A stretch of 64,000 nt of DNA from Planctomycetota bacterium (GTDB taxonomy: Bacteria; Planctomycetota; UBA1135; UBA2386): the NCBI GenBank assembly GCA_965228735.1, contig OZ245838.1:6848001-6912000 (forward strand), read 5' to 3'. Below are positions 13,465 to 49,686 of the stretch, piece by piece (position 1 is the stretch's first letter; every line of letters begins with the position of its first letter). The notes under the pieces are model-generated. The model was not told the DNA's origin and made no database searches. It saw only the letters and a list, made by a program, of their open reading frames with translations. Both the position numbers and the translations under genes were made by a program.

Positions 13465-15165
13465 CTACTGCACCACGGTACGGATCACGTTCGTAGTGGC
13501 CAACGTCTGAGCTGCGTTGGAGGGGATGATGAACCCGAGTCCTTGGACGATGAACGTGAGTGTCGTGTTTTGCGGTATTCTCAGGGTGAGAGACGCTGTT
13601 CCGGACGCGTCGGGGATCAGGCCGGGCGACAGGGCGACGGCGTTCTGGTCGATTGCAATGAAGCCGACGGAGGGGAGGTGGCCCCACGCCTGCTGGGGAG
13701 GCACGGACAAGTGTAGGACCATGTAGCTGCTTCGGACGGTGTTGTCGTAGAACCCGACATCGAAGCCGAACGTGAGCTCGTAGTCGACAAAGCCGGAAGT
13801 CGTGTTGATCAGCCGCGGGGCGTCGATCTGGCTCAACGCATTCGGATGAAAGCGCAGCGATGATTCGGTAGGTACCGCCGTGAACAGGTCGGGGTCGCCG
13901 TCGAGGTCCACATCGGCGAGCGCTACCCCTTGGGTATTCAGCTGCAATTGCGAGTCTGACTGGATGCGGCCTGGCGCGTCCACGAACCCCGGACCAGTCA
14001 TGGGGGAGTTGTCGAACAGATAGAGCCGCGTTCCGCCGTGGGTCGATCCGAACGTCTCGTTCACCGTCACGACATCGAGGTCGCCGTCACCGTCGACGTC
14101 GCCCACGGCAAGGTCGTTCGAGGCATCGCCCGAGGAAGGCAGCGGTTGGGGCGCGGCGAAGACCCCGGTCCCGTCGTTGAGGAACAGTTGTTCGGAGCCG
14201 TTGATCCAGAAGCCGGCAACGAGCTCCGGTTTGTTCGCCGTGATCAGATCGAGGTCGCCGTCGTTGTCGACGTCGGCGAGCTCGGCGCCGCTGCTTCGCC
14301 TCGACGGCAAGCCGCTCAGGCCCGCGGTGGCGGTGCTGTCGGTGAAGGCGCCGGAGCCGTTGCCGGTGATCAGAACATGCGTGCCCGCGCCACCAGTGGC
14401 CGAGCGCAGGCCTGCGAACAGATCAGGATCACCGTCGCCGTCGATATCGCCGGTTGCCAGCGCTTCGATATGGATGTTGCCCGTCACGGCGGGAATGCCC
14501 GTCGCGACCTCCGTGAAGGTCGGCGGCATCGTGCCGCTGTTTTCGAGGTAGAACAGGCCGGAGGTAAAGCCTGGCCTCGGTGCCGCGCCGGCGAAAATGT
14601 CCAGGTGTCCGTCGCCATTCCAGTCGACCAAAGCGACGCATCGGACGTTTGCGAAGTTGGGCACTTCCAGCAGGGCCAACTGGCTGCGGTCGTCGAAGGT
14701 CGACGTCGACGACAGAGCGTTCTCGAAGTAGAGCACCGCGCCGGGGCCGGAGCCCTGGGTGACCGCGAGCACGATGTCGAGTTGCCCGTCGCCGTTCATG
14801 TCGCCGACGGCTCCGTCCGTGGCGCCATTGGCAGGCCGTGTAACGAAGCTCGTCCGGTCGAAGAACTCGCCCTGCGGGTCAGCGAATCCGGTCGATTGAC
14901 CGCCGTTCTCGTAGTACGAGTCCTGGCCCGAGCTCACGACGTACGCGTCGACATCGCCATCGCCGTCGAAGTCGGCCAGCAGCACGTCCTGGGCCGCCAG
15001 AGTAGGCGAGTTGGGGAGCTTCGCGTTGAACCCCAACACCGGCGGCGCCGTGCCCGTCTCGGCAGCGTGCAACGTGAATTGTGTTGTGAATGACTGCGCA
15101 AGTGCGGGGGACGCGAGTGCGAGGGCGACTGCCACAGTCAACGTGCGATGAGTCGATGCGTTCAT
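13465..15165 (-). CDS. Secreted FG-GAP/VCBS repeat beta-propeller protein with conserved C-terminal domain
   Basis: Signal peptide ALA|Q; about 7 'D.DGDGD.D' repeats. Confidence 0.88.
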   Translation of the reverse strand: MNASTHRTLTVAVALALASPALAQSFTTQFTLHAAETGTAPPVLGFNAKLPNSPTLAAQDVLLADFDGDGDVDAYVVSSGQDSYYENGGQSTGFADPQGEFFDRTSFVTRPANGATDGAVGDMNGDGQLDIVLAVTQGSGPGAVLYFENALSSTSTFDDRSQLALLEVPNFANVRCVALVDWNGDGHLDIFAGAAPRPGFTSGLFYLENSGTMPPTFTEVATGIPAVTGNIHIEALATGDIDGDGDPDLFAGLRSATGGAGTHVLITGNGSGAFTDSTATAGLSGLPSRRSSGAELADVDNDGDLDLITANKPELVAGFWINGSEQLFLNDGTGVFAAPQPLPSSGDASNDLAVGDVDGDGDLDVVTVNETFGSTHGGTRLYLFDNSPMTGPGFVDAPGRIQSDSQLQLNTQGVALADVDLDGDPDLFTAVPTESSLRFHPNALSQIDAPRLINTTSGFVDYELTFGFDVGFYDNTVRSSYMVLHLSVPPQQAWGHLPSVGFIAIDQNAVALSPGLIPDASGTASLTLRIPQNTTLTFIVQGLGFIIPSNAAQTLATTNVIRTVVQ

Positions 15166-15273
15166 CCGTCAGTCTCTTGGTTGTGAACTTCGGTGGTCTG
15201 GAGCAGCCTCTGTTGAGCGGCGCGCGTTGCGTGTTGCGCTGATTCTGCAGAAACTGAGTCACCCTCGACCGGG

Positions 15274-15303
15274 TTGACACTCGCGTGCTCGGGGCACTAG
15301 CGT
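15274..15303 (+). promoter_or_regulatory. Putative sigma70-type promoter for the ECF-kinase operon
   Basis: TTGACA (15274-15279), 18-nt spacer, TAGCGT (15298-15303); 10 nt upstream of the ATG. Confidence 0.35.
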
Positions 15304-15313
15304 TGAGAAGCGA

Positions 15314-15913
15314 ATGGGTGGTCAACGCGGCGAGCGCCACACCGCCGATATCCTGCGGCGGGCGCAAGGCGGCAACCCCGACGCCTGGGCCGAGTTGGTT
15401 CGGCGTTGCGAGAATCGGTTGCGCGTTCTGGTGAGCTTCCGATTACGGGCGGCCGGTCCGGCCAATGCGGACGACGTGCTACAAGACACCTGGTCCGTCG
15501 CGCTGCAGAGGTTCTCGGCGTTCGAGTATCGCGGCGAAGGCTCGTTCTTGCGGTGGATGTCGGGAATCCTGCGCATGAAGATCCTGGAGGCGGCGCGGAC
15601 CACGCACCATTTGCGAGGAGGCGTCGACCTGGGCGCGGTTGCCGTGGGGGCCAATCCGCCGGGGTTGCTGCGCGCGCTGATCGAGTCGCAGACGCCCTCG
15701 CGCGAAGCCTCGTGCAACGAGCAGGTTGCGCGGGTCCGGCAGGTATTGGCCGCGCTGCCGGAGCCCGATCGAGAGGTCCTTCTGATGCGTCACTATGAGG
15801 GGCTGACGCTCCGCGAGGTCGGCGCTCAACTCGGTGTTGACGCTTCTACCGTACTACTGCGCGAGCGACGGGCGATCGACCGCTGCGCCCGGGAGTTGAG
15901 GGAGACCCAGTGA
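15314..15913 (+). CDS. ECF RNA polymerase sigma factor
   Basis: 'ADDVLQDTW...FEYRGEGSFLRWM' region 2; 'LAALPEPDREVLLMRHYEGLT' region 4. Confidence 0.9.
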   Translation: MGGQRGERHTADILRRAQGGNPDAWAELVRRCENRLRVLVSFRLRAAGPANADDVLQDTWSVALQRFSAFEYRGEGSFLRWMSGILRMKILEAARTTHHLRGGVDLGAVAVGANPPGLLRALIESQTPSREASCNEQVARVRQVLAALPEPDREVLLMRHYEGLTLREVGAQLGVDASTVLLRERRAIDRCARELRETQ

Positions 15914-18714
15914 GGAGGCCCGTGAGAGACGCGGTGGACGGGAGCGACTCGAGCCACCCGAGTGATCACGACCGTGTGCTCGCGTTCCTGACCTTCCGTG
16001 AGGATGCGGAGTCGGATGATCGATCCGTACCACGGTCGGGCGATCGGGTCGCCGGCTACACGCTCGGTGCGGAGATCGGGCGAGGCGGTGTTGGTGTCGT
16101 GTTCCGCGCCCGTGACGAAGCGCTTGGCCGCGACGTCGCGCTCAAGTTGATACCAGCGGCCCTCTCTGATGTCGGTCGCCAGCGCGCCGAGTCGGAAGGG
16201 CGCCTGCTCGCCGCAGTCCGTCATGATTCCATCGTGCCGGTGTACGCGACGGGTTTCGTGCGGGGGTTCTATTGGGTGGCGATGGAGTTGGTCGATGGCG
16301 AGTCGCTGATGCGTTGTCTCGCCGGCGAGCCGGCCCGCGGATTGCGCCCGGGCGAGCCCGATTGGCTCGGGTGGTTGTTGCCGTACCTTCGACAGATCGC
16401 CGCCGCACTCGGAAGTTGCCACGCCCGCGGCATCCTGCATCGAGACATCAAACCGAGCAACGTCCTCATTGGGTCGAACGGCCAGGCCTATCTCGTCGAC
16501 TTCGGGCTCGCGCGGGTACTCGATGTCAACGCGACGGCCACCGTGGGATTCGTTGGCACGCCCTGCTACGCATCGCCCGAGCAAGTCCGCGGCGAGCCAC
16601 TCACTGCGGCCAGCGACGTCTTCTCGTTCGGTGCGATGATGTTCGAAGCGATCACTGGCGTGCTCGCATTCTCGCAGCACGACCGCGGAGCACTGGACGA
16701 TTCCATTCGGTTCGACGACCCGGTCTGGCCGCGGCGCGTTCGAGCCTCTGCGGAGCTTCGAGCGATCGTCGAGAGATGCCTCGAGAAGGACCCTGGGGAC
16801 CGTTACCCATCGGGCAGCGAACTCGCTGCAGACTTGGCGCGGTTCTTGCACTTCGAGCCCGTTCGAGCGATCAAGAGAGGCCGGCTGAGTCGCTTCTGGC
16901 AGAGGGTGCGGCGGCGGCCAGGGCCCTTCGCCGTGCGGGCCGGCGGCGTCTTGCTGGGCTCGGCGGTCGTCGCGCTGTGGTTTCACAACGCGACACAGGC
17001 ATCGTCGCTGCAGCGCGTCGGGGCCGAGGCGCAGTTCGCGCGCGCGGTCGAGGCCTACGAGATCGGCGATCTGGACGCTGCCGGCCGGATGTTCGCGAAT
17101 CTCGCCGGGTCTGACTACCGGGCTGCAGAGGCGATCGACTATCGCGGCGAGTTGGCTCTCCGGCGGGGCGAACTTGGCGAAGCGCGCCGAATGTACCGAG
17201 CGTCAACTGTCGATGACCGGCAGCTGACGACCCGTGTCGGCCGGCTGTTGTCGGCTGTGGTCCCAACGGATTCGGCGTTGCAAGGCGGGGCGACTACACC
17301 TCGAGAGCACGCGATGCTCGGCCGGTATCGGTTCGAACGCCGCGACTTCGCTGCGGCCAAGGTTCACCTGGACCTGGCTCTCGCCAAACGCAACGTATGG
17401 CCGTGGCTCGTAGATCGCGCTCGGTGTCATTTGGCGCTGTATGAGTTGCGCGCTGGCGGTCGTGATGCCCTCGCTGCCTGCTCGTTGTGGCCTGATAGTC
17501 TCCGTGATGCCACGTTGTTGGAGACACTGTGTTTTTGCTTGCGCAACACGGGCAAGGCGGCCGAGGCTGTTCGAGTAATCCGGGAAGGGCGCGTGCGAGG
17601 CATCGACTCGGATGTTCATCGCGCGCACCTTGCTCTGTGCCTGCTGGCCGTGGATAGGCGCTCGGTAGAGGCGAGAGAAGAGATCGCGAAGGCGTGTTCG
17701 GCATCGAGCCTCAGCGAGTGCGCAGACCTCGTCGCCTTCGCCGTCGCGATGTGTTACGGGGCCGAGCCCGGAGCACCGCAACTCGCGTTCATCGATCGGG
17801 TGCTGGCTGAGCGCCCAGAATCCCCGGGGGCCTGGGCCGCCAAGACACTCGCGGCTTCGCGCCGATCGGATTGGTCCGCTGCTGTGGATGCCGCCCAGAA
17901 GGGACTGGGTCATGCAATGGTCGGCTCATGGGCACTTTCCTTGCGCCGGCATCTTGCGATTGCGTGGTTCGAGCAGCAGCGCTTTGCGGAGGCCGCGGTG
18001 GAGCTGGAAGCCATCGAAGAACTCGTTCCCGGAGACGCGGCGATCTCTAGTTTGCTTGGCCGGGCTCTTCTGCAGTTGGGACGACTCGAGGCCGCGTTCG
18101 CTGCAAGCGAGCGGGCGATGAACGCCGACCAAACGTCGTACGAAGCGCTCGTACTGCGTGGCCAGTTACATGCGCACCGGGGTGAGTTCGAGTCGTCCAT
18201 TCCCTATTTCATGCGTGCGTGTGGCGTGCGGCCAGATCGAGCGGACGCGTGGTACAAGCTGGCGAACGCGCAGGTTGATCTAGGCCAGAACGGCGCCGCG
18301 TGGCTCAGCGCCCGCGAGGCGACCCGCCTGAGCCCGGTGTGGGGTTGGGCCTGGGTCACGCGCGCTCTCGTAGAATCGCGGCTCGGCAAGTCGTCGGACT
18401 CGGTTGATAGCTACCGGCGCGCGGTGGCCATCGTCAAGGAGCCTCGCGTTCGGCTTGATCTCGCAGAGGAGCTCCGAAAGCTCGGGCGTATGACGGAGGC
18501 ACTGATTGAGGTCGAGAACGCCCTCCGTCTCGCTCCCGAATCGCCGTACGTCCTCGCAAGTCTCGGTGAACTTCTCTCGACTGCGGATGATTCGTCGGGC
18601 CGTGATCTCGAGCGTGCGGAGCGAGTGTTGCGCCACGCCTGTCGGTTGGCCGATGTCGAGTTCCGCCCGACGTGCGAGCGACTGCTGCGAGCCGCGATCA
18701 CGGCTCGGCGGTAG
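15910..18714 (+). CDS. Ser/Thr protein kinase with TM segment and TPR repeats
   Basis: GRGGVG, VALK, HRDIKPSN, DFGLA, YASPEQ; TM then TPRs; GTGA overlap with ECF stop. Confidence 0.92.
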   Translation: MRRPVRDAVDGSDSSHPSDHDRVLAFLTFREDAESDDRSVPRSGDRVAGYTLGAEIGRGGVGVVFRARDEALGRDVALKLIPAALSDVGRQRAESEGRLLAAVRHDSIVPVYATGFVRGFYWVAMELVDGESLMRCLAGEPARGLRPGEPDWLGWLLPYLRQIAAALGSCHARGILHRDIKPSNVLIGSNGQAYLVDFGLARVLDVNATATVGFVGTPCYASPEQVRGEPLTAASDVFSFGAMMFEAITGVLAFSQHDRGALDDSIRFDDPVWPRRVRASAELRAIVERCLEKDPGDRYPSGSELAADLARFLHFEPVRAIKRGRLSRFWQRVRRRPGPFAVRAGGVLLGSAVVALWFHNATQASSLQRVGAEAQFARAVEAYEIGDLDAAGRMFANLAGSDYRAAEAIDYRGELALRRGELGEARRMYRASTVDDRQLTTRVGRLLSAVVPTDSALQGGATTPREHAMLGRYRFERRDFAAAKVHLDLALAKRNVWPWLVDRARCHLALYELRAGGRDALAACSLWPDSLRDATLLETLCFCLRNTGKAAEAVRVIREGRVRGIDSDVHRAHLALCLLAVDRRSVEAREEIAKACSASSLSECADLVAFAVAMCYGAEPGAPQLAFIDRVLAERPESPGAWAAKTLAASRRSDWSAAVDAAQKGLGHAMVGSWALSLRRHLAIAWFEQQRFAEAAVELEAIEELVPGDAAISSLLGRALLQLGRLEAAFAASERAMNADQTSYEALVLRGQLHAHRGEFESSIPYFMRACGVRPDRADAWYKLANAQVDLGQNGAAWLSAREATRLSPVWGWAWVTRALVESRLGKSSDSVDSYRRAVAIVKEPRVRLDLAEELRKLGRMTEALIEVENALRLAPESPYVLASLGELLSTADDSSGRDLERAERVLRHACRLADVEFRPTCERLLRAAITARR

Positions 18715-18898
18715 CGCGCTGACCTCAACGCCGCCTCGAAGCCTCTCGGTGGACCCGCTGAGCAGACTGACCGAGCCCGCTTCGCGGGCGGCCGCCGCAA
18801 CTGCTCAACCGCAACGGCACCCGGTCAGAACGCGCCCTCGTCTTGGTGCGGTGGCGCGCGCCAGACCTGCGGCCGCTAGGCTGTTGGTGGAACTCGCC

Positions 18899-21800
18899 AT
18901 GTCCAAACCACAGTCCCTTCTCCGGTTCCTGACGGCCGTCTCGTTCACGGCCATCGCGTCACCCGTTCTTCCTCTCCTACACGCGCAGGGCGAACCGGCG
19001 GCCGCCGGTCGGCCGCCAGCGGAGAAGGCCGCGGAGAACGCCGCGGACACGACTACTGAGGACGCCACGCCGAAGGTCCTGACCGTCGCCGACTACGGCT
19101 CGTGGAACCGAATTGGCGACGTCACGTTGTCACCGAACGGCCAGCACATCACCTACAGCTACCGGCCGAACGACGGCGACACCCGCTTCTTCATCGCCGA
19201 GGCGGCGAGCGGGCGCGTCGTTCACGAGGTGATGAACGGTGGGTCCGTCCGGTTCTCGGACGACGGCAGGTGGATCGGCTACCTCGTCCGGCCGCAGGAA
19301 GCCGAAGCGAAGAAGCTGGCGAAGCAGAAGAAGCCCGTGCGCTCGGCGCTCGAACTGGTCGAGCTGCCGCCGCTCGGCGACGCGGATGCCGCGATCGAGC
19401 CGCGACGCTTCGAGAGCGTGCGGTCGTTCCGGTTCGCGGACGAGGGCGTGCCGTTCGTCGCCGTTCACAAGCACGGGGCCGAGAAGGCCGAGCACGACGG
19501 CAGCGACCTCGTGTTGCTCGATCTGCGCCGGGGCCAGGTCCAGAACATCGGCAACGTGTCCGCGTTCGCGTTCTCGGAGACCGGTTCGTTCCTCGCCTAC
19601 ACGATCGATGCGGCCGATGACGCCGGCAACGGTGTCTACCTGCTGAGGTTGCGCGGCGACGACGGCGCCGCGGCGGGGACCCCCGTGGCGTCCGTTCTCG
19701 ATTCCGGCACCGACTCGACGTACCGCGGTCTGGTCTGGCAGCGCAATGATCGAACCACCGACGCCGACTTGCTTGCTGTCCTGCGGGGGCGAGTCGTCGA
19801 GTCGGACGTCGCGGAGAGCGCCGAGCCAGACGCGAAGACCGGCTCCGATCCGAAGACGAACGGCGAGCCCGAGAAGAAGGAGTTCGAGGCCGAAGAGAAC
19901 GAGCTGCTCGTCTTCGACCCGGCGGCGGGCTGGTCGGAGGTCTTCGACCCGAAGAAGGCCCCGCGGTTCCCCGACGGCCACGTGCTCTCCGAGTACCGTG
20001 CTCCGTCCTGGTCCGACGACGGCAATCGCGTGTTCGTCGGCGTGCGCGCCCAGGCCGAGAAGATCGCGAAGAAGTCCGACGACGATCAGGCCAACGTCGA
20101 GGTGTGGCACTGGCAGGACGAACGCGTGCAGTCCGTCCAGAAGGTTCGCGCGTCCCGGGACCGGCGCCGCACCGACCTCGCGGTCGTGCACCTCGCGGAT
20201 CGCGCGGGCCAGCGGCTGGACCAGCCGCGGTTCGTCGCGCTGACCGACGACCGGGTGCGGAGTGTCACGACGACCGATCATGCCGACTTGTTCGTCGGGC
20301 GGGACGACTCGCGCTACCGCGGGGACATGTCGATCGACGGCGGTCTCGCGGACTACGTCACGGTCGACCTGTGGACCGGCGAGCGCCGTCCGATCGTGCA
20401 GCGCGTGCGTCGGTCGATGGGGGCCTCCCCCGACGGCCGCTTCTTCGTCTGGTCGGTCGACGGTGCGATCAGCGCTTACGACCTCGAGCGCCGGCGGCGC
20501 ATCCCGCTCTCCGGCTTGATCGATGTCGACTTCACCAACCGGCAAGCCGACCGCACGAGTGAGAGTTCGACCTACGGCATTGCAGGGTGGGCGGCGGACG
20601 GTCGCACCGTGATCCTCAATCACCGCTACGATCTGTGGGCCGTCCCGCTCGTCGCGGACGAAGCGGAGGACGGCGAGCTCGAGCGCCCGACCGACCTGAC
20701 CGGTGGCGTGGGGCGTGAGCGCGCGATCCGGTTCCGGCTCGTGGACCTGGAGCCGGACGTCGACACGTTCGACCTCACGAAGCCGTTCCTGCTGTCGGCG
20801 TACGGGGATCGGACCAAGGAGTCGGGGTACTTCTGGGGCTTGCCCGGCGGTGCGCCGAAGCCGTTGCGCTACGTCGATGCGATGGTCTCTGGCCTGCGCA
20901 AGGCGGCGGACTCAAGCCGCGTCGTCTGGACCCGCCAGACGGCGGTCGAGTTCCCCGACCTGTGGACCGCGACGCTGCCCGCTGCCGGCCAGCCGATGTC
21001 GGCTCCTCAGAAGCTCACCGACGCCAACCCGCAGCAGTCGGAGTACGCGTGGACCCCGGGCCGGATCCTGTTCGACTACACGGACGCGCGCGGCAACGAG
21101 CTCCAGGGCACGCTGACCCTGCCTGCCGGTTACGAGAAGGGCCGCCGGTATCCGGCGCTCGTCTACTTCTACGAGAAGATGTCACAGCGGCATCACCAGT
21201 ACTCGATGCCGGCCTACGACGATCGGCCGCACATGTCGACGTACGCGAGCGACGGCTACGTCGTCATTCAACCGGACATCGTCTACGAGCCGGGCAAGCC
21301 GGGCTCTTCGGCCGTGGACGACGTGACGGCGGCGGTGCACGCGGCGATCGAGCTGGGGATGGTCGATCCCGACCGAATCGGCCTGCAGGGCCACTCGTGG
21401 GGCGGCTACCAGTCGAGCTTCATCGTGACGCAGACCGACCTCTTCGCCTGCGTCGTGACGGGTGCGCCGTTGACCAACCTCGTCAGCATGCACAACGTGC
21501 TCTACAAGCGCAGCGGCTCGCCCAACGCGGGCCTGATCCAGTGGGGGCAGGGCCGCATGGGAACGAGCCCGTGGGACGACTGGCAGGGCTACCTCGACGA
21601 GTCGCCGGTGTATCACGCGCGTTCGATCACGACGCCGTTCATGATCCTGCACGGCACGGCCGACGGCGCGGTGGACTGGAACCAGGGGCTCGAGTTCTAC
21701 ATCGCGGCGAAGCGGCTCGGGAAGCAGGTGATCCTGCTGAGCTATCCCGACGAGCCGCACCACCTGCGGAACAAGGCCAACCAGATCGACTTCCAGATCC

Positions 21801-21919: not shown

Positions 21920-22072
21920 TCGTGGGGTGCTCACGACCGTGTTGAGGGTGCCGGTTCCTGGCACGAGCCGGGTTCGGCGCCCACCCGGTGCGCAACGGGC
22001 CGTGTCGTGGCGGGACGACTGCCGCAGGCCATCCAGGGCGCGGACTTCTTGTCCGAACGTTCGACGCAAGGC

Positions 22073-23188
22073 CTATCGAATCACCGGAAGCGGGCGCCGC
22101 GGCCGGGCCACGCCTTCGAGCCCGTAGCCGGGCCGCCGCGACAGCAGCACGACCTCGCCGTCGAAACCGGCCGCGACGAGCTCGTCGGTCGAGTTGCGGC
22201 CGTCGAGTTCACCGGTCGTCAACCAGTGGCCCTTCTGCGCGCCGGTCCAGATGTCGGTGACCTGCCACGAGCCGTCGGGCCCGCGTGACACCAGCTGCAC
22301 GATGCCGTTGTAGCCGTAGACCGCGACGGCCTCGCGATCGTCGGCGAAGAAGCGACCTGCCGCGACGCCGCGCAGCCCCTGGTCCGTCACGAGAATCGGT
22401 TCGCGCGCGACATCGCCGGGTGCGTCGAACATGACGCGCAGCAGCACGCCGTCGTCGCGGGTCACGTAGAACGTGCCGCGCTTGCGGCCGCGCGCGATTC
22501 GCCCGAGTCCCTGGCTCTCGTGCAACACCACGCGCGAGGTCAATCCCTGCCTGTCGAGCTGCATCGCGAGCAGGTGCCCGGCCCGGCTCACGCCGAGCAC
22601 GGTTGCCCGCTCGGACCCCGGTAGTTCAGCGACGAGCGCGTCCCGCACCCGGCCGCCGACGTGCCCGACGCGTTCGACCCGGAACGCTCCGGCTGCGCCG
22701 CTCGGCGATGCGCGGTAGACCGCACCCGAGATCCCGAACGCGAGCAGCTCGGCGCCGGCACCCTCGGCGAGTTCAGCGGTGAGCACGGTGTGGAACTCCT
22801 CGGCTGCGACGTGGCCGATCTCACGACTCTCGAGCGTGAATCGCGCGAACGGCTGCGGCCGCAGCGTGACCTGGTGGATCGAGCCGGCCTGGCCCGCGGC
22901 GTAGAGCTCCCGTCCGGGCAGGCGCGGATCGATATCGGCCGGCCGTGAGGGCGCGAGCCACTGCCGGTCGGGGGTGACCTGGTGCGGCGTCCATTTGCCG
23001 CTGTAGACCGACAGCACGAACAGGCGGCCGGCGTCGTCGGTGGCGATCACCTCGGGCGGGGCGTGGGCCTCGACGACCTGGTCGACGTGCGCGTACCAGA
23101 CGCCGTCGTCGCCGGAGTGGATCGTCTGTGCCGCCCAATGTTCGGGCCCCTGCGGCAACAGCGATATCGCGAGGGCGAGCGCGATCAT
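22073..23188 (-). CDS. Secreted hypothetical protein, FG-GAP-like propeller
   Basis: Start MIALALAISLLPQ overlaps the upstream stop (ATGA); 'ADIDPRLPGRELY', 'GELDGRNSTDELV' blades. Confidence 0.65.
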   Translation of the reverse strand: MIALALAISLLPQGPEHWAAQTIHSGDDGVWYAHVDQVVEAHAPPEVIATDDAGRLFVLSVYSGKWTPHQVTPDRQWLAPSRPADIDPRLPGRELYAAGQAGSIHQVTLRPQPFARFTLESREIGHVAAEEFHTVLTAELAEGAGAELLAFGISGAVYRASPSGAAGAFRVERVGHVGGRVRDALVAELPGSERATVLGVSRAGHLLAMQLDRQGLTSRVVLHESQGLGRIARGRKRGTFYVTRDDGVLLRVMFDAPGDVAREPILVTDQGLRGVAAGRFFADDREAVAVYGYNGIVQLVSRGPDGSWQVTDIWTGAQKGHWLTTGELDGRNSTDELVAAGFDGEVVLLSRRPGYGLEGVARPRRPLPVIR

Positions 23189-24579
23189 AGGATCGTGAAG
23201 CTGGCGCCGCGCGAAGCCGCGAGCAGGCCCGAGGCCTGCTCGTAGACGAAGCCCTGGGTGTAGACCGCGATGCCTGTCAACGCCGGTCCCGGCGGCAACG
23301 GGAAGTCCACCCTGCCGGTGCCGTTGCTCAGCGTCGAGAAGACCGGATACGTCACGCCCAGATCGACGAGCACCGACATTCCGAACATCGTCGTCGGCAC
23401 CGTGCGCGCCAGGCTCATCACGAACAGCACCGGATCGCTGCTCGTCAGGCTCGCCTCGAGCGTCAACGAGAACTGGAAGTTGCCGGGCTCGGGCAGCCCG
23501 CCGGGATTCGGCGTGAGCTGCCAGTCGTAGGTCGCGGCGCCGGGCGTCCCGGCGCCGAACGCTTCGGGGTTGGGATTGACGTCGAGCGCCGAGATCGTCG
23601 CGCGATCGGGTGTGATGAGCAGCGACTCGGGCGTACCCGGCTCGGCCCAGAACACGGAGCGAGCGGGGTTGCCCGCGTTCGCGGTCGCGAGGATGTGGTT
23701 GCCGGTTGCGCGCTCGACCGCGATCGCGTTGAGGGGGCCGATCGTCGTCACCACCGCCGATGTGGTCTGGGTCACCGGGTCGTAGCGGAACAGGTTCGGC
23801 GGTCCATTGAGGCACGCGACGAGGACGGTGCCGTCGAGGTCGACGGCCAGGTTCGACCCCGGCGCTGGCAGCGAAGCGACCTGCGTCGCGATGCCGCCGG
23901 CGATCGGCACCTCCCACAGGTCGCCGGCCATCGTCGAGATCCAGTTGGTGACGTAGATCGACTGGCCGTCTGGCGTCACCGCGAGGCCGTTCATCACACC
24001 CGGAAACTGGCTGAGGTTCGTGATGGGGATCGGGGTGAGCGCGCCGGTCTGCGTATCGAGGATGCCGATGCCTTGCCAATGAAAGCTCGCGGTCAGGGCC
24101 TGTGCCAGCGGGCTGTTGGCGGTGAGGTCCGTCGCGGCGACGACGACACGGCCGTCGGGCAACAACCCCATTTGCGGGGACTCGGCCTCGACGACGCTCG
24201 TGCCGATGCTGAATGCCTGGCTCGAGACGACCGCGGCGGCGTTGAGGTGCAGCACGTGCACGTCCACACTGGTGCCGGCGGGAGCGCGCTCGGCGGCGAT
24301 GATCGCCTCGTCGCTCGGGCGACGCAGCAGCGCAGCAACGCCACGGTTGGTCTGCAGTGGATCGTAGGACAGAGCTGCCGGCAGGCCGGTGACCTCGATC
24401 GCCGGCGCGGCCGTGTCGCGCGGGTGCACGAAGAAGATGCCGTTCTGGCCGGTGGCGCCCTGGAACGAGCCGAACATCACGTAGCCGTCGGGCACCTGTG
24501 CGGTCGCCGTGGCCGCGGTGAGCAGCAGTTCGGTGGTGAGGGTGGCGAGGAAGGAGAGGGAAGTGAGGGTGGTCTGCAT
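23185..24579 (-). CDS. Secreted beta-propeller protein with conserved C-terminal domain
   Basis: Signal peptide ATA|Q; 'GLAVTPDG', 'LAVDLDG', 'IAVERATG' blades. Confidence 0.75.
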   Translation of the reverse strand: MQTTLTSLSFLATLTTELLLTAATATAQVPDGYVMFGSFQGATGQNGIFFVHPRDTAAPAIEVTGLPAALSYDPLQTNRGVAALLRRPSDEAIIAAERAPAGTSVDVHVLHLNAAAVVSSQAFSIGTSVVEAESPQMGLLPDGRVVVAATDLTANSPLAQALTASFHWQGIGILDTQTGALTPIPITNLSQFPGVMNGLAVTPDGQSIYVTNWISTMAGDLWEVPIAGGIATQVASLPAPGSNLAVDLDGTVLVACLNGPPNLFRYDPVTQTTSAVVTTIGPLNAIAVERATGNHILATANAGNPARSVFWAEPGTPESLLITPDRATISALDVNPNPEAFGAGTPGAATYDWQLTPNPGGLPEPGNFQFSLTLEASLTSSDPVLFVMSLARTVPTTMFGMSVLVDLGVTYPVFSTLSNGTGRVDFPLPPGPALTGIAVYTQGFVYEQASGLLAASRGASFTIL

Positions 24580-25074: not shown

Positions 25075-26256
25075 CTACCACATCAGCAACGCGGTCTCGC
25101 CGTGCGATGCCGCCCAGTAGAGTCGCACGCGAAGGACGTAGCGCCGGTTCGCGATGAACTTGTAGTCCAGCGTGGCGTTGAGCGCGGTGCCGCTGTCGTC
25201 GTCGCCATCGCGATACCGGAGTTCATTGCCGTCCTCCTCGAACAGCACGATCACCGTGTCGGAGTCGCCGAACGTGCGGATCGTGCGCCAGCCGGTCGTG
25301 GTCGGAACGATCGAGAAGTTCGCCTGCTCGCCTGGCCCGAGCTCGAGTCGCTCGAGTTCGAACGCCCGGAGCTCGGGGTGGGTGTTCTGGATCGGCGGGT
25401 AGAACAGTTGGACCTGGTCGATGTCCTTGCTCGACAGGCCCGCCGCGGGAATCAGGTCGTTGTTCTGGAACTCCGAGGGGTGCTCGATCAGCCCCGCCTC
25501 GAAGTGGTAGTGCATGATCGAGTCCCTGTCCCAATTGGTGCCGGACACGTCGTCGGCCGGGAGCTTGTTCAGGATGTTGTGCCGGATCTGACTCTCGGTC
25601 CAGTTGTTCGGCGGGCCGGAGAACGAATCGAGCACGGCGGCCTCGTCCCAGACGATGCCGCTGAGCGGGTTCTGGTGTTCGTGCGGAAAGCCGAGTGCGT
25701 GGCCGATCTCGTGCAGTGCCGTGTCACGGCCGTACTGGGTCGTCAGATCCCAGCCGAAGTTCATCGTCCAATCGGTTGGCGAGCCGCCGTAGTCGATCGC
25801 GTCGCGCCCGACGTACGAGGCCGAGCCTCCCGGTCGGAAACTGATCTTGATCTCGGCGTCCGACGGGTCGTTCACCTCTTCGAATTCCAGGCCGATGCCG
25901 AGGTCCCTCCACTCCTGGAACGCGTCGCGAACCGCCTGCTTCTGGTTCGCGGCGCCGACCCAGTTGTCGGGCAGCCAGGCGCCGGCGGTGGCCTTCTCGA
26001 AGAAGTAGTAGTGCAGGGTCGTGCCGTTCACCCACTTCTTCGACGTGCGTCGAATCAGCTCGAGGCGACGCGGCGAAACGTCGCCGTCGACCGGCCGTTC
26101 CGGCACGTCGACGAGTTTGCAGAACGCCGGCTTGCCTGCGGTCTTCCGTCCTGTGCTCGACGAGCCCTTGCCGTCGTCGTGGACGATGTTGTCTTCGATG
26201 CGGTCGAGGCGGCGCTCGATCTTGGTGAGGCGCGAAGCCAGTTTCTTTTCGGACAT
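25075..26256 (-). CDS. M12A/astacin-like metzincin metallopeptidase with C-terminal PPC-like domain
   Basis: HEIGHALGFPHEH zinc motif; SIMHY Met-turn. Confidence 0.88.
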   Translation of the reverse strand: MSEKKLASRLTKIERRLDRIEDNIVHDDGKGSSSTGRKTAGKPAFCKLVDVPERPVDGDVSPRRLELIRRTSKKWVNGTTLHYYFFEKATAGAWLPDNWVGAANQKQAVRDAFQEWRDLGIGLEFEEVNDPSDAEIKISFRPGGSASYVGRDAIDYGGSPTDWTMNFGWDLTTQYGRDTALHEIGHALGFPHEHQNPLSGIVWDEAAVLDSFSGPPNNWTESQIRHNILNKLPADDVSGTNWDRDSIMHYHFEAGLIEHPSEFQNNDLIPAAGLSSKDIDQVQLFYPPIQNTHPELRAFELERLELGPGEQANFSIVPTTTGWRTIRTFGDSDTVIVLFEEDGNELRYRDGDDDSGTALNATLDYKFIANRRYVLRVRLYWAASHGETALLMW

Positions 26257-39183: not shown

Positions 39184-39204
39184 GCCTGAAGGGTGGAGCA
39201 CAGG

Positions 39205-40087: not shown

Positions 40088-40090
40088 AGG

Positions 40091-40287: not shown

Positions 40288-40293
40288 ATTATC

Positions 40294-41028: not shown

Positions 41029-41049
41029 CGCGGCGCTCAGAGAACTCCC

Positions 41050-42732: not shown

Positions 42733-42999
42733 GGCGGGGCCGCACCTATCCCGATCGCCCGCGCCAGTCGAGGAAGACGATGTCGAGCCATTCGCCCCAA
42801 CCTCGTGGCGAATGGTCGATGGGCAACTCGAGGACACGAAGGTCCGCCGATCGATCGCGGAGCGCACCGGCGAGCGCGCGGCCATCCGCGACCAGCCGCA
42901 CGAGCGGCATCCAGGCCGGAGTCCGGCGCGGCATGGGATGGCGGTGCGGCAAGGTCACTGCACGGTATCGCGTCGGTCCGTCAGACCCAGGGTTCCCGC

Positions 43000-43728: not shown

Positions 43729-44014
43729 CGAGGGTATCGTGCGGCCGTGTGTTGCCGGTCCGGTCTGGACCAACGTCGGTCTCTTGTCGCGGGGGCGAGG
43801 GAATCGCGCAACCCGTGCTCCGTCCGCTTCTCGCGCGTGGCGGTGGCTGGCCGTCGGTGGTCAGGAATCGTCAAGACGCGTGTGACCGGGTCGTCCCCGA
43901 CCGGGGCCTACCGGGTCGGCCTGGACAGGCGCTCGAGGTCGCGGCGAAGTGCCGGAGCGAACATGAGCCGTTGCCAGGCGCTACGATGCGAGGGTCTCGT
44001 GCCCTGGCCCTGAC

Positions 44015-44845
44015 ATGCCCGATTACCGCGAACACCAACCCGCCGCGCCGCTCCGCTCGTTCGTGCGGTGCATCTGGGAGCTCGTCGCTGACCCTGCGGA
44101 AGAACCGGGTGGCGCGCTCGAGCGCGTGTTGCCGGACGGTTGCATGGAGTGGGTGTTCCATCTTGGCACGCCGTTTCGGATCGAGCGCGCGCCGGGGCGA
44201 CTCGAGCGCCAGGCGCATGCGCTGATCGGCGGCGTGACGACGCGCGCGATCCTGCTCGAGCCGAGTGCCGACGCGTGGGTGTTGGGCGTGCGGTTCGAGC
44301 CGGGGCATGCGTGGGCTGCCGCCGGGATGCCGGCGCGTGAGCTCGCCGACCGCGTCGTGGCCGCGGATCACGATCCGTGGTTCGCGGAGGTGACCGGACG
44401 GCTGCACGATGCCGCACCCGCAGAACGGGTCGGGCACCTGCAGGCCGAGTTGCTCGACCGCTTCGCGAACGGGCCCCGGCCGCGTCGCGCCGCGCGCGAT
44501 CTCGGGCTCGCGATTCGGGCGCTCGTCGACGGACGTGCGACGGTCGATCAGGTCGCGCGGTCCTGCGGGCTGAGTCCGCGGCAGCTGCAGCGGCGGTTCC
44601 TGGCCGAGGTCGGCGTCGGGCCGAAGCACCTGGCGCGCATCACCCGGTTCGCGCGGGCGGTGGAGCTCGTGTCGTGGACCGATCAGCCGCTGACCTCCGT
44701 CGCGTATGCCGAAGGCTACGCCGACCAGTCGCACTTCACGCGCGAGTTCAAACAGCTGGCCGGTCTGTCGCCGCGGCAGTATCGCGCGGAGACCCACGGC
44801 ATGGCCGAGGCCTTCGCCGGGGGCGCGACGTCGCATTCGTTCTAG
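44015..44845 (+). CDS. AraC family regulator (DUF6597-like N-terminus)
   Basis: 'ERVLPDGCME', 'GVRF.PG', 'SPRQLQRRF..EVG..PK', 'GYADQSHFTREF'. Confidence 0.9.
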   Translation: MPDYREHQPAAPLRSFVRCIWELVADPAEEPGGALERVLPDGCMEWVFHLGTPFRIERAPGRLERQAHALIGGVTTRAILLEPSADAWVLGVRFEPGHAWAAAGMPARELADRVVAADHDPWFAEVTGRLHDAAPAERVGHLQAELLDRFANGPRPRRAARDLGLAIRALVDGRATVDQVARSCGLSPRQLQRRFLAEVGVGPKHLARITRFARAVELVSWTDQPLTSVAYAEGYADQSHFTREFKQLAGLSPRQYRAETHGMAEAFAGGATSHSF

Positions 44846-44905
44846 TCGGCGGCCGCGGCCCGCGCCAAAGTGCCGGCGTTTGCACCCCTCCCCGGAGACC
44901 CTGTC

Positions 44906-45445
44906 ATGACCTCGAACCTCTCGTTCCGAACGCCGCTCGCCGCCGTCCTCCTGCTCGGTGCGCTCCTGGTCCTCACCGGCTCGATCGATCTCGCGTCGCC
45001 GGGCACCGACCCGCAGGACCCGCAGCCGGCCCCGCAGAAGAATGCGAAGAAGAAGCTGACCCTCGCCGACATCGCGTGGCTCTCGGGTCACTGGCGGTCC
45101 GAGAAGCCCGGCAGCATGAGCGAGGAGCTGTGGATGCCGGCGCGCGGCCGCATCATGCTCGGGCTCAACCGCAACGTGCGCGGCAAGGCGCACGGGCAGT
45201 TCGAGTACCTGCGCATCGTGCAGACCAAGATCGACACCTACTACTGGGCGAGTCCCGGCGGCGGCAAGCAGACGCCGTTCAAGATGACGAAGGCGACGGA
45301 GGATCACGTGGTCTTCGAGAACCCGGAGCACGACTTCCCCAAGCGCATCGAGTATCGCCGCAAGGGCGACACGTTGACGGCGCAGATCTTCGGCGACGAA
45401 CCGGGACCGTCGTGGTCGTGGAAGCGGATCGGCGACGTCAAGTAG
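44906..45445 (+). CDS. Secreted DUF6265-like protein
   Basis: 'LADIAWLSGHW', 'EELW', 'FEYLRI', 'FENPEHDFPKRIEY'. Confidence 0.75.
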   Translation: MTSNLSFRTPLAAVLLLGALLVLTGSIDLASPGTDPQDPQPAPQKNAKKKLTLADIAWLSGHWRSEKPGSMSEELWMPARGRIMLGLNRNVRGKAHGQFEYLRIVQTKIDTYYWASPGGGKQTPFKMTKATEDHVVFENPEHDFPKRIEYRRKGDTLTAQIFGDEPGPSWSWKRIGDVK

Positions 45446-45490
45446 CGCGGCGAGCCAGCCCCGCTCGGGCCGTTCTGTTACCTTGGCTTT

Positions 45491-45913
45491 GTGCAGAACG
45501 GGTCGAGCACTGAGCCCGCCGCCGCCTGGTGGACCGCTTTCGGTTGGATCGGGTCGATCTGCGCCGGGCTCACGGCCGCGGTCCTGGCCTTGCTCCTCCA
45601 GGGCTCTGTCGCCGCGCTCGAGGTCTACGTGTTCGCGTGCCTCGGGGAGAGCCTCGCGGCCGCCGCAGCGCACACGGTAGTGTTGGCCGCGATCGCGTTC
45701 GCGGGCGTGTGGGCGGCCGGCGTGACGGCGCCGGTGGGGCTCGGACTCCGGCCGGCAGTCGTGGCCTGGTGCATCGTGGTCGGCTACCTCGGGTGGGCGA
45801 TGCGGGAACCGCGGTATCTCGAGCTGCTGTTCGGCGCGGTCGCCGGGCTGGCGCTGGGGCGATCCGTGCTGCGACCGAGATCGCGAAGTGTCCGCCCCGG
45901 AACGGCGCGTTGA
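45491..45913 (+). CDS. Hypothetical multi-pass membrane protein (paralog 1)
   Basis: About 4 hydrophobic helices; homologous to the next gene. Confidence 0.6.
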   Translation: MQNGSSTEPAAAWWTAFGWIGSICAGLTAAVLALLLQGSVAALEVYVFACLGESLAAAAAHTVVLAAIAFAGVWAAGVTAPVGLGLRPAVVAWCIVVGYLGWAMREPRYLELLFGAVAGLALGRSVLRPRSRSVRPGTAR

Positions 45914-46350
45914 CCACGTCGCCCGACGGTTCTGGCGGCGGACCGACCGCCACCTGGCCGCGCGTCTTCGGGTGGATCGGCTCGACGTGCGCCGGGCTCG
46001 CGGCGGCGTGGCTCGTCTGGCGCGAGGCGTGGTTCATCACGCTCATGCTCTGGAAGTTCGGGGAGGGTGGCGTCCGCGCGTGGGTGTTCGGCATCAACAC
46101 GACCGCGGCCACGTACGCATGCGTCCTGGTTGCCGGCGTGACGGCTCCGACCTCGCGCCCGATCTGGCCGGGTGTCCTCGCCTGGGCCAACCTCGTCGGC
46201 TACCGCGCTTGGGCGACGTGGGGTGCGCCCGGGCACTCGTGGTGGTTCGAGTCGCTGCTCGGGCTGGTCGTGGGGCTGGCGTTGGCGGCATGGACCCTGC
46301 ATCCGATCTCGAAGTGGCGGGCGCAGCGGGCCGCGGCGCGCGCGAAGTAG
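45910..46350 (+). CDS. Hypothetical multi-pass membrane protein (paralog 2)
   Basis: TTG start overlapping the previous TGA; shares 'FGWIGS.CAGL.AA', 'AGVTAP', 'VGY..WA'. Confidence 0.6.
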   Translation: MTTSPDGSGGGPTATWPRVFGWIGSTCAGLAAAWLVWREAWFITLMLWKFGEGGVRAWVFGINTTAATYACVLVAGVTAPTSRPIWPGVLAWANLVGYRAWATWGAPGHSWWFESLLGLVVGLALAAWTLHPISKWRAQRAAARAK

Positions 46351-46446
46351 CCGCTGCGACGGGCAGCTCCGTGCCGCTGCATCGATGCGGGACGGCGCGT
46401 ATCGAGAGGCTCAGTTTCGGCGTTGCCCGCGGTCGAAGACTCGCCA

Positions 46447-47685
46447 ATGACCACTCTGCAGGAGTCCGTTTCGGACCGCGTTCGCGCCTGCCGTTTCCGC
46501 GCGGACGTCGCGCTGCTCGAGCGGATCACGGGCGACCAGCAGTTGCATGCCGCGATTCAGGACCCGCGCGCCCTCGAGCATCGGCGCACGGCCCGCGGGC
46601 AGCTGCTCGCCTCGGCCGTGCGGGTCGACGAACGCATCGTGCCCGGGCTCGCGCGCACGTTCGCCGAGATCGCCGAGCGCGCCGGCATCGACGTGCCGTT
46701 CGAGGCCTACGTGCACCAGGACGCAGAGATCAACGCCTACGTCGGGATGGGCGCCGGGCACCTGCTCATCTCGCTGACGAGCGGGGCGGTCGAGCTGCTC
46801 GACGAGAACGAGCTCGAGTTCGTCATCGGCCACGAGCTCGGCCACGCGCTGTTCGGGCACCTCGACTACGTGCCCGGATTCGCGCTCGAGCACGGCAACA
46901 TCCCGACGCGCGACGCGATGCTCGTGACCGCGTGGCAGCGCGCGTGTGAGATCTCCGCGGATCGCGCGGGGCTGCTGTGCTGCGGCGATCTCGACGTTGC
47001 GTCGACCGCGATCTTCAAGACGCTGTCGGGCCTGCGCACGCCGGTGCGGATCGACGCTCACACGTTCGCCGACCAATGGGAGCAGCTGCAGCAAGAACTC
47101 GTGCAGCGCGGCGATCGCGAGCACTGGAAGTTCAGTCACCCGTTCCCGCCGATGCGGCTGCAGGCGTTGATCGCGTTCGCCGGCGCGGGTGGTCTCGAGG
47201 CCCGCCCGGCCGACTGCGGCGAACGCCAGGAGGCCGACAGGACGGTGCAGAGCCTGCTGGCGTTCATGGATCCGCTCGCGCGCGAAGAAGGCGAGATCTC
47301 CGATCCCACGCTGGCCGAGTTCATGCTCTGGGGCGGCCTCTACCTGGCCATCGGCGAGGGCGCGGCGGCCGTCGAGGACCTCGCGCCCCTCGATCGGCTC
47401 GTGTCGAACGCGCGGCTCACGCAGGCGTTCGCGGCGCTGCCGAGTCGCGCGCGGTGCCTCGATGAGCTCGAGAACGCGCTCGGTTGCCGGGACCGCCGGC
47501 TGCGCAGTCTCGAGGTCTACCGCATCGTCGAGTGCTTGACGGGCACCGCGGCGCAGGGCGGCGTGCTTTCGGCAAGCGCGCGCGAATCCATGATCCACGT
47601 CGCGGGGAAGCTCGGTCTCAAAGCAGAGGCCGGCACCGCGATCATCGACCGAGTGCTGAAGGGAACGAACGGAGAAGACCAATGA
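46447..47685 (+). CDS. M48 family metallopeptidase with TerB-like C-terminus
   Basis: 'INAY', HELGH, 'EISADR', 'SHP'; C-terminal 'AAQGGVLSASARESMIHVAGKLGL'. Confidence 0.8.
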   Translation: MTTLQESVSDRVRACRFRADVALLERITGDQQLHAAIQDPRALEHRRTARGQLLASAVRVDERIVPGLARTFAEIAERAGIDVPFEAYVHQDAEINAYVGMGAGHLLISLTSGAVELLDENELEFVIGHELGHALFGHLDYVPGFALEHGNIPTRDAMLVTAWQRACEISADRAGLLCCGDLDVASTAIFKTLSGLRTPVRIDAHTFADQWEQLQQELVQRGDREHWKFSHPFPPMRLQALIAFAGAGGLEARPADCGERQEADRTVQSLLAFMDPLAREEGEISDPTLAEFMLWGGLYLAIGEGAAAVEDLAPLDRLVSNARLTQAFAALPSRARCLDELENALGCRDRRLRSLEVYRIVECLTGTAAQGGVLSASARESMIHVAGKLGLKAEAGTAIIDRVLKGTNGEDQ

Positions 47686-48134
47686 ACGACACCGCAGGCA
47701 TGAAGACCGTCCTCGAGCAGGTCGAACGCATCGCCACGATGAGTGGGCTCGTCGGCGAGCAGCGCGACGAGGATTTCGCGATGCTGTTCGACCTCGGCGA
47801 CGACCGCTCACAAGCCGTCTACGTCAAGCCCACGGGCACGTTCGAGGACAGCACGATCGTGACGTTCTTCTCGCCGGCTCACATCGTGGCGAAGGGCGGC
47901 ATGTTCAAGAAGGGTCTGAGCCGCGAAGCCGCGATCGAGCTGCTCATGGCCAACGAGAACATGATGTTCGCGCGCTTCGGGCTGTGGACCTCCGACGAGG
48001 AGGACACGATCGTCTGCAGCGTGGACGCGCTCCTGGAGTCGATGGACCCGGAGGAGTTCAGCCAGTTCGCGCACCGCGTCGCGCACGCCGCCGACGACTA
48101 CGAAGCGGCGCACGGCGGCGCGGACCAGTTCTGA
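47682..48134 (+). CDS. YbjN/T3SS-chaperone-fold-like acidic protein
   Basis: ATGA coupling; 'RSQAVYV', 'VTFFSP', 'ELLMANE...ARF', 'VAHAADDYE..HGG.DQF'. Confidence 0.65.
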   Translation: MNDTAGMKTVLEQVERIATMSGLVGEQRDEDFAMLFDLGDDRSQAVYVKPTGTFEDSTIVTFFSPAHIVAKGGMFKKGLSREAAIELLMANENMMFARFGLWTSDEEDTIVCSVDALLESMDPEEFSQFAHRVAHAADDYEAAHGGADQF

Positions 48135-48249
48135 GCCCGGTAGCTCGCGCAGCGAGCAAACGGACTCAGGACCTCGCCGCGCTCCTGCGGAGCGCCGCTT
48201 CGGTTCTGATCGATCGATCGGCCAGCCCTCGGCTCGCCGAGGAGGGTCG

Positions 48250-49686
48250 TCAGTTGCCGACCCGCAGGCCGATCGCGTTCGAGGTCAGGACTTCGTACTG
48301 GAACGGCACGACCGCGCTCGGATCCGGCACGAGGAACTGCGCGAACAGATCGACCCCGACGAACGCGGGGTTGGCCGGAATACTGACGGCGAAGCGGGCT
48401 GCGCCGTTCGTCGGGAGCACGACGACGGGAGCGTCGGCCGCGACCCGCAGCGGACATAGGCTCGCCACTCCGAACGTAGCGAGCGATGTCGGTAGGGGGA
48501 TCGGGCCCGAGAACTGGTCGGACAGTCCGAGCGCGAGCACGCCGAACGCAGCGGTGCTCGGCCAGCGGGTGGCTGCGAGTTCGAGCTGGTTGCCGAGGAT
48601 CGGGCGGTCGTCGCCGACCGTGCCGAGCTCCGGTGCCGGCGTCGTGCCGAACGGCGACCGGCAGGCCGTTCCGAGGCTCGCGGTGCGGTTGCGACCCGGT
48701 CCGGCGCCACGCACGACCCAGTTGGTCCGGTTGGTGAGCGTCCGTACGAGAACCTGACCCGTGCTCCCGTCGAACGCCGCGCCGGCGTCCGGGCCGAGGT
48801 CGAATTCGCCGGAGGCGATCGGTGCGGACCAGGTCGATGCCGCCGGGTCGAACTCGAACACGTCGTTCAGCGCGTCGATCTGCAGCACGTTCGTGCCGTT
48901 GACGTTGACCAGCGTGTTCCTCGCGCCACCTGCGAGGACGAACACGTTGCGTTGCAGGTCGAACGCGAACGCTGCGCGATAACGGTCGGTCGGTGCATTG
49001 GGCGTCGAGACCTGGCTCCAGGATCCCTGGGAGTAGAGCCACGTGTCGTTCGACTGCACGGTCGGGCCCTGCGAGCCGCCGAACAGGACCGGCGGCCCGC
49101 CCGGACCGTTCGCGAACGACGCGAAGTCGCGTGCAGCAGGCGCGGTGCCCGGGCTCTGTTGCGTCCAGTTGGTGCCGTCGAAGGTCCACGTGTCGGCGAG
49201 CAAGGTCGTGTTCGGCGCGCGCCCGCCGAACAGCACGATCGACCCCGTAGCGGATTCGAACGCCAGCGCTGTTGCGATCCTGGGCGGGGGCGACGTGCTC
49301 GTTGCGACCTGCAGCCAGCCGCTCGCGTTGAACGTCCACGTCTCGTTCGAGAAGCCGCTGGCGCCGGCGCCGCCGAAGAGCACGACCGTCTGTCGCACGA
49401 GGTCGCTCGCGAGCGCGTAGTCCTGGACGGCGGCGGGGCCGGTGTCGGGCAGGCGGAGCCATTGCCGGCCGTCGAAGCTCCACGACTCCCCGCGGCTGAA
49501 GACGAACGGTTCGAACGTCGGCGACGATGTCAGTGTGCCATGGCCAGCGAAGGCCGGGCTGCCACCGTTCGCCGAGATCACGCGGGCGATCGCGATTTCG
49601 CTCTGGGCCGTGATGACGTCGCCTGGGCCGAAGATCGAGCTGGCCGTGAGGAGCGTCAGCGAGAAGCAGTGTGGAGGAAGTCGCAT
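48250..49686 (-). CDS. Secreted Kelch-like repeat protein with conserved C-terminal domain
   Basis: Repeated 'VLFGG...(N/D)TW.F.G..W'; C-terminal domain shared with the CDSs at 13465 and 23185. Confidence 0.82.
   Translation of the reverse strand: MRLPPHCFSLTLLTASSIFGPGDVITAQSEIAIARVISANGGSPAFAGHGTLTSSPTFEPFVFSRGESWSFDGRQWLRLPDTGPAAVQDYALASDLVRQTVVLFGGAGASGFSNETWTFNASGWLQVATSTSPPPRIATALAFESATGSIVLFGGRAPNTTLLADTWTFDGTNWTQQSPGTAPAARDFASFANGPGGPPVLFGGSQGPTVQSNDTWLYSQGSWSQVSTPNAPTDRYRAAFAFDLQRNVFVLAGGARNTLVNVNGTNVLQIDALNDVFEFDPAASTWSAPIASGEFDLGPDAGAAFDGSTGQVLVRTLTNRTNWVVRGAGPGRNRTASLGTACRSPFGTTPAPELGTVGDDRPILGNQLELAATRWPSTAAFGVLALGLSDQFSGPIPLPTSLATFGVASLCPLRVAADAPVVVLPTNGAARFAVSIPANPAFVGVDLFAQFLVPDPSAVVPFQYEVLTSNAIGLRVGN

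Follow-up and report, generated by a model that had tools for sequence, protein, structure and literature searches.

Do secreted proteins with unrelated passenger folds share a sorting or anchoring device in planctomycetes? The question is raised by a 64,000-nucleotide stretch of a Planctomycetota genome (the window, G000:C1:6848001-6912000; the source genome, G000, is a single 7.19-Mb contig of 69% GC and 93% completeness). Here, an FG-GAP repeat protein, a propeller-like protein, a kelch-propeller protein and an orphan segment had been predicted to share a C-terminal tail, taken as a lineage-specific export or anchoring signal akin to the C-terminal domain (CTD) of type IX secretion systems (T9SS) and to PEP-CTERM. 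The tail segments do lie where they had been reported, all on the minus strand, and the motif is real, but its ~45 residues form only the last third of a domain of ~120–140 residues. As proposed, the module is lineage-restricted and unannotated, and it occurs, as a predicted β-sandwich, on hundreds of unrelated signal-peptide proteins, mostly at the C-terminus. It is likely to be an anchoring or addressing device, but a strict analogy to the T9SS CTD or PEP-CTERM is unsupported. On the reading we favour, to which we give a probability of about one half, the domain would remain uncleaved and serve as a handle, docking exported enzymes and propellers at the cell surface, the role that dockerins fill elsewhere in planctomycetes.

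A domain on hundreds of proteins of one genome

The tail recurs across the genome. Searches iterated from the kelch tail and from the propeller tail each returned ~260–270 open reading frames (ORFs), and a 122-position profile run against the 100,256 six-frame ORFs of G000 matched 295 at E < 1e-3. Relaxing the cutoff to E < 1 raised the number to 341, still without a single reversed decoy. Most of the matching ORFs (334/341) fall within the 5,247 genes called by a codon model; gene starts and signal peptides were assigned by heuristics (the codon model and a regular expression), not by a standard caller or SignalP. With an expanded profile, we obtained 374 called genes as the union, and 366 of the 5,247 at E < 0.01 on full-length proteins. 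The domain is present on about 7% of G000 proteins. It comprises ~125 residues (120–140), with a Gly-x-Gly-Cys arm marking its N-terminal boundary.

Neither 118 copies from G000 nor 31 from a different family of the order gave a Pfam or NCBIfam match, and the best match in a PDB sequence search reached only E 0.4. Alignments of the G000 and other-family copies match each other at 99.3% probability. At least 33,798 clusters of a 50%-identity cluster library match at E < 1e-3; ten of these were looked up, and the one named with an organism belongs to the Planctomycetota. Two word-index protein searches returned 12 and 6 matches, titled hypothetical where named. We found no paper describing the domain in a literature search that left subscription journals and bioRxiv supplements outside, and the terms 'secretion', 'signal peptide' and 'S-layer' are not present in the accessible part of the Saltatorellota preprint (10.1101/817700).

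Position within the carriers

The original prediction called for a strictly C-terminal position. Among the 366 carriers, the domain stands at the end in 339, is followed by a 13–50-residue tail in 13, and by a long tail in 14, comprising 12 N-terminal copies and 2 internal ones. It is thus non-terminal in 27/366, and for these proteins the prediction failed. Each carrier has exactly one copy, and none has two (0/366). The N-terminal copies follow a signal peptide in 7/12 cases by regular expression and 11/12 by eye, and Gln98 and Pro85 are kept in all 12. In ten of the short-tail carriers, the tail resembles the segment that, in a paralogue without the insertion, comes directly after the same host domain; the domain appears to be inserted inside the host domain in these ten proteins, as suggested by a match of 13.9 bits in one protein and by eye in two more. 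Gln98 is kept in 10/10 inserted copies. Because host strands seem to follow the inserted copies, removing the domain would cut the host, and cleavage of the domain as a general process seems unlikely. The N-terminal and inserted copies also mean that a free C-terminus is not required.

Three carriers (G000:C1:5780-7645 and 3180940-3182820) have a common tail of 34–35 residues after the domain. Circular permutation in these proteins looked plausible by eye, but it scored no better than the null.

Predicted fold and conserved face

AlphaFold2 gave two confident all-β models, with predicted local distance difference test (pLDDT) scores of 95.1 and 97.8. In both, a core of seven strands is preceded by an N-terminal arm and interrupted after the third strand (strand C) by a long insert, and the domain is predicted to fold as an immunoglobulin (Ig)-like sandwich. 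Foldseek searches with the models returned nothing at E < 1e-3. A wide structural search found only generic Ig-like chains at Z 7–8.6, the best being 8.6 (root-mean-square deviation (rmsd) 2.9, 96 aligned) and 8.5 (rmsd 2.6, 92 aligned); these matches include LILRB1, SiiE, the Nir2 C-terminal domain and the carbohydrate-binding module (CBM) CBM56. The core sandwich is common to the domain and to generic Ig-like domains, but the scores are at background level for the fold, and about 30–45 residues of each model are left unaligned. Of the structural likeness to the T9SS CTD that had been anticipated, the Ig-like sandwich stood as a prediction, but no solved T9SS CTD, nor any cohesin, is among the matches listed.

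We then pooled 565 sequences for covariation analysis. The strongest covarying pair is Cys6–Cys58, predicted to form a disulfide that ties the arm to the insert. Gln98 (537/565) and Ser/Thr113 (514/565) are also among the top covarying pairs. A further coupling links the insert with the last hairpin. Given these three couplings, the arm, the insert and the last hairpin likely form one conserved face.

Could Gln98 react with the Ser/Thr next to it to give an autocatalytic ester, stabilising the domain or linking it covalently to the envelope? The conservation and covariation of the pair would fit this idea, as would the ester-bond adhesin domains seen among weak Foldseek matches (E ~0.008, rmsd 8.8–9.5), but those matches are not significant, and a Gln–Ser hydrogen-bond corner explains the pair equally well. 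According to the available part of one preprint (10.1101/2025.03.26.645365), the ester chemistry of Cpe0147 needs a base and buried acids. Asp or Glu occupies position 103 of our domain in 403/565 sequences, and no His is conserved (≤8% in any column). We consider an ester extremely improbable.

Comparison with known C-terminal signals

A T9SS-like signal that some unrecognised translocon and sortase cleave off as the protein is exported would be compatible with an Ig-like sandwich that is C-terminal in 339/366 carriers, with Gln at the mature N-terminus and with cargo of the T9SS type. The accessible text on the RgpB CTD (PMC4804311) describes the T9SS CTD as an Ig-like sandwich too, with its signal within the last 22 residues, and as being cut off. 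Both the T9SS CTD (PF18962) and our domain end hundreds of Sec-exported proteins with similar cargo. However, our domain is longer, carries a predicted disulfide along with its N-terminal arm and large insert, is found also at N-terminal and internal sites, and has no sequence match to the CTD. Its 27 non-terminal copies keep the conserved residues, standalone copies would leave no cargo once cleaved, and PorV (NF033709) was not found in G000, while the control matched in Bacteroides. A SprA search of G000 gave no match but was silent on its control too, as was the PF18962 search. Because of the 12 N-terminal copies, the 10 apparently inserted ones and the failure to find PorV, identification of the domain as a T9SS-type terminal signal is not supported. 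It resembles the T9SS CTD in fold class and cargo and departs from it in position and PorV, and we regard a cleaved signal of this kind as very unlikely.

PEP-CTERM/exosortase and similar short sorting signals (PMC1569441; 10.1101/2023.06.07.544157) are likewise many-to-one surface-protein tags with a patchy occurrence across lineages. Our domain differs: it lacks a signature peptide, a membrane helix and a basic tail, and it is all-β in the models. G000 encodes one exosortase and, by pattern, one PEP-CTERM-like protein. The single exosortase gene lies within a polysaccharide export-type gene cluster (L165, G000:C1:996106-1006018).

Carrier proteins and their charge

The 374 carriers form 44 BLAST families and 118 singletons. 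Based on Pfam (79 of 127 full-length carriers fetched), they include propellers (kelch, Rax2/DUF5122, sortilin, LVIVD), enzymes (M14, S8, C1, trypsin-like, beta-lactamase-type hydrolases, sulfatase and a di-haem MauG-type protein) and other modules (PKD, LamG), and many have no match. The predicted co-occurrence with signal peptides was borne out: a signal pattern closing in Ala-Gln is present in 275/351 carriers versus 608/3,705 other genes, and most carriers without the pattern show a signal peptide by eye. A lipobox was seen in 1/274 carriers and an internal membrane helix in 4/274. The carriers did not prove to be cytoplasmic proteins, nor the domain a known Ig or CBM family. Carrier genes cluster, with 66 adjacent pairs observed compared to 21.5 expected.

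Presence of the domain tracks low charge. Among signal-bearing proteins, it is found in 263/317 of those with Lys+Arg+Glu <11%, in 22/107 of those with 11–14%, and in 0/485 of those above 14%. The Lys content of passengers is 0.6%, versus 2.8%. Nine paralogue families mix carriers and non-carriers. In four of these, all carriers are less charged than all non-carriers; of the rest, one follows the trend apart from two exceptions, another two do so only marginally, a further one is mixed and the last shows the opposite. Because the domain marks low-charge, signal-bearing proteins, we infer that the carriers represent the extracellular rather than the periplasmic protein set.

Some 15–20 G000 genes code for a signal peptide and the domain alone. 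Such proteins are in line with a general accessory module that binds the cell's own exopolysaccharide or lipopolysaccharide, or a particle surface, much as SLH domains and CBMs do and with no protein receptor. The Ig-like fold is common to CBMs, albeit at background level (CBM56, Z 7.3–7.6), and no protein partner has been found. Glycan-binding anchors usually come in tandem, however, and two copies were seen in 0/366 proteins; moreover, no aromatic residue is conserved at ≥45% in any alignment column. A binding module of this type is unlikely.

Distribution and a relative that carries dockerins

Of 31 relatives, 30 carry the domain, most with scores to hundreds of copies. At E 1e-12, it was found in 86/101 genomes of the class, and the 15 misses come from a single family, in which the domain takes a divergent form; when three of the 15 were retested, all three were positive, one with at least 150 copies under a second profile. 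Across the Planctomycetota, the domain was found in 32/151 genomes sampled, and 20 domain-negative genomes of the phylum were still negative with the second profile. Within this phylum survey, one part of the Planctomycetota has the domain in multiple copies.

G021 is the only genome of the same order found without the domain. It is a 91% complete metagenome-assembled genome (MAG) of 50% GC, the sole member of its family, and has no match with either profile. Its signal-peptide proteins end instead in an Ig-like unit plus a type I dockerin (loci L142, L146, L150 and L155, in the 400 kb of 2.9 Mb read), and it has 24 dockerin matches on 19 contigs. Dockerins are otherwise sparse: of 151 genomes of the order, 135 have none and 15 have 1–3. 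Three dockerin-bearing G021 contigs match the bin in composition (r 0.91–0.97) and carry homologues of G000 genes. One dockerin-tagged propeller of G021 has six homologues in 36 genomes, of which two end in the domain by profile, one has it by eye only, one is cut at a contig end and two end otherwise.

G000 itself has no dockerin match (PF00404); a further dockerin model is the GC-type NF041540. Dockerins and the domain are alike in that one module is present per exported protein, mostly at a terminus, on varied enzymes and propellers, and the two take the same place on homologous passengers, a parallel drawn from one contrasting genome. The domain differs in having no sequence or fold relation to dockerins, being ~125 residues long and all-β in the models, with no calcium-loop repeat. 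It works like a dockerin, but it is not one.

Export machinery and receptor candidates

The seven secretins of G000 are spread over several clusters of type II or type IV pilus-like kind. As discriminating machinery, secretins had to be rejected, since all 14 genomes tested have 4–9. One cluster (L050, G000:C1:1399119-1414788) contains PilM-like, TPR and pseudopilin genes and encodes a 1,735-residue GspK-like protein, with no adjacent secretin. This giant protein is present in 17/18 genomes of domain-bearing lineages and, weakly, in 1/5 outgroups. It was rejected as machinery that tracks the domain, being kept in the domain-less G021 (E 4e-39).

These data bear on a further possibility, namely that the folded domain is an export address, read at whatever position it occupies by a type II system specific to the lineage, with passengers released or anchored by other means. 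Such an address would agree with a domain found once per protein on most of the low-charge secretome (263/317), and with the distribution of the giant-GspK cluster across domain-bearing lineages and outgroups. So would the need of some cargo, for instance the di-haem MauG-type protein, to be folded before it is exported. However, G021 lacks the domain yet keeps the giant pseudopilin and several secretins, and secretins do not discriminate among the genomes tested. No type II system whose cargo all shares one domain is known to us, which also counts against an export address. It is the chief alternative to docking, and we view it as rather unlikely.

Around eight related Big_5-type proteins of 870–1,310 residues, mostly lipoprotein-like and with glycine-rich middles, are encoded in tandem groups (L047, L049, L057 and L058, e.g. 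G000:C1:2691436-2703361) and are clade-restricted among the genomes tested. As receptor candidates, the Big_5-type lipoproteins were set aside: at E 1e-20 they are present in 10/23 domain-positive genomes, in G021 as well, and in 0/20 outgroups, so that they do not track loss of the domain. Two small β-barrel candidates (L065 and L066, G000:C1:4455693-4457444 and 4273314-4274288) have weak, sub-cutoff matches to TIGR04219, a barrel found with GlyGly-CTERM systems.

Docking at the cell surface

Docking is supported by the single copy per protein, the free position of the domain, the Ala-Gln signal pattern and the low charge of the exported set on which it is found, and the dockerin contrast in G021. 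Surface location, export route and docking of the carriers are what we infer from these patterns. Carriers would leave the cytoplasm by the Sec pathway, the signal peptide closing in Ala-Gln (a heuristic pattern) and presumably being cleaved there. The domain would fold in the periplasm with the Cys6–Cys58 disulfide, as the covariation predicts. The folded protein would then cross the outer membrane, most likely via one of several type II systems, for which secretins are present. Finally, an envelope receptor would be bound one to one by the conserved face, in which the arm and the insert that follows strand C come together with the last hairpin and the Gln and Ser/Thr it bears.

Several points weigh against docking. 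The strong C-terminal bias (339/366) is also expected of an export signal, and signal peptides and gene starts come from heuristics only. The swap to dockerins is seen in one genome, alone in its family, a 91%-complete MAG with 400 kb of 2.9 Mb read; the homology between dockerin- and domain-tagged passengers is distant (27–31% identity over 220–250 residues), and 11/20 domain-negative outgroup genomes also have no dockerin. Cohesin (PF00963) was not found in G000, G021, G181 or G041, with the control matching. We likewise found no receptor for the domain, no strongly enriched partner family among the neighbours of carriers genome-wide, and, by self-BLAST with a filter that may hide divergent repeats, no low-charge scaffold with long internal repeats. 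Carrier genomes may contain a divergent or analogous cohesin-like partner. The role of planctomycete dockerins has itself only been hypothesised: the available text of PMC6461901 proposes, for other planctomycetes, cohesin–dockerin peptidase complexes ('planctosome').

The copies in the window

The positions of the window copies and their genes are given in Table 1. Each of the three complete genes encodes an N-terminal hydrophobic stretch closing in Ala-Gln, the kelch version being atypical. Pfam matches are limited to FG-GAP and kelch repeats, leaving the last 120–140 residues uncovered.

Table 1. Domain copies of the window and the genes that carry them (window coordinates)
Feature	Position	Strand	Description
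Kelch-propeller protein	48250..49686	minus	478 residues; signal peptide and C-terminal domain copy
Domain copy of kelch protein	48253..48678	minus	Full copy, 142 residues; AlphaFold-modelled, pLDDT 95.1
Propeller-like secreted protein	23185..24579	minus	464 residues from ATG
Domain copy of propeller protein	23188..23562	minus	Full copy; variant without the cysteine pair
Orphan segment	24814..24993	minus	Start-less; C-terminal half to two thirds of the domain
FG-GAP repeat protein	13465..15165	minus	566 residues; signal peptide
Domain copy of FG-GAP protein	13468..13773	minus	Shortened, divergent copy; weak scores

A profile built without window sequences detected the kelch (E 7.6e-19), propeller (E 1e-12) and orphan (E 1.5e-9) copies, which by these scores are clear members of the family. 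The same profile did not report the FG-GAP copy, for which the original claim is weaker. This copy scored E 0.053 with our first profile, E 2.9e-4 when the profile was made from 10 other copies borne on FG-GAP proteins, and 70.6% probability over 47 columns by hhalign, and its G002 orthologue scored E 9.5e-6 with the FG-GAP profile. Judged by these scores, the FG-GAP copy probably belongs to the family as a divergent member.

The records holding relatives of the propeller gene bear titles of Planctomycetota MAGs, some being depositor-labelled 'Brocadiaceae' or without a phylum; the domain is at the C-terminus in 15/17 fetched (from Planctomycetota-titled or unlabelled MAGs). The gene just downstream (22073-23188, minus strand) overlaps the propeller stop codon and encodes a 371-residue signal-peptide protein with no Pfam match and no domain.

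The 86-codon frame of the orphan lacks a start codon, and no further domain sequence was detected upstream of it in any frame. Because it is a partial domain with no start codon, directly behind an unrelated M12 peptidase gene, we read it as a remnant, likely a pseudogene fragment; G000 contains a few comparable half-domain remnants elsewhere. The neighbouring gene (25075-26256, minus strand) encodes an M12A/M10-like zinc peptidase with no evident signal peptide and ends ~80 bases upstream of the orphan, whose parent gene it may have displaced. Divergent from the FG-GAP gene is an ECF sigma factor gene (15314-15913, plus strand), and one ECF-like family is modestly enriched beside carriers genome-wide (9/24, p ~1e-3 uncorrected).

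Implications

In a widespread group of planctomycetes, most of them uncultured, the domain marks the majority of proteins predicted to be extracellular, yet it has no Pfam or NCBIfam model; with a profile for it, that secretome could be annotated at a stroke. Tentatively, the lineage may possess a display system of its own, made up of a position-independent, disulfide-locked Ig-like tag on up to 7% of all genes, a lineage-specific type II machine with a giant tip pseudopilin, an undescribed envelope receptor and a modular coat of enzymes and adhesins, a wider picture that is possible but doubtful as a whole. If this picture holds, the domain would be a second, unrelated solution to the role of the cohesin–dockerin pair, and one lineage would have swapped its tag wholesale for dockerins. 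For the study of display on the planctomycete envelope, the domain offers a concrete tag, a conserved face that can be mutated, and a natural dockerin swap to guide the search for a receptor.

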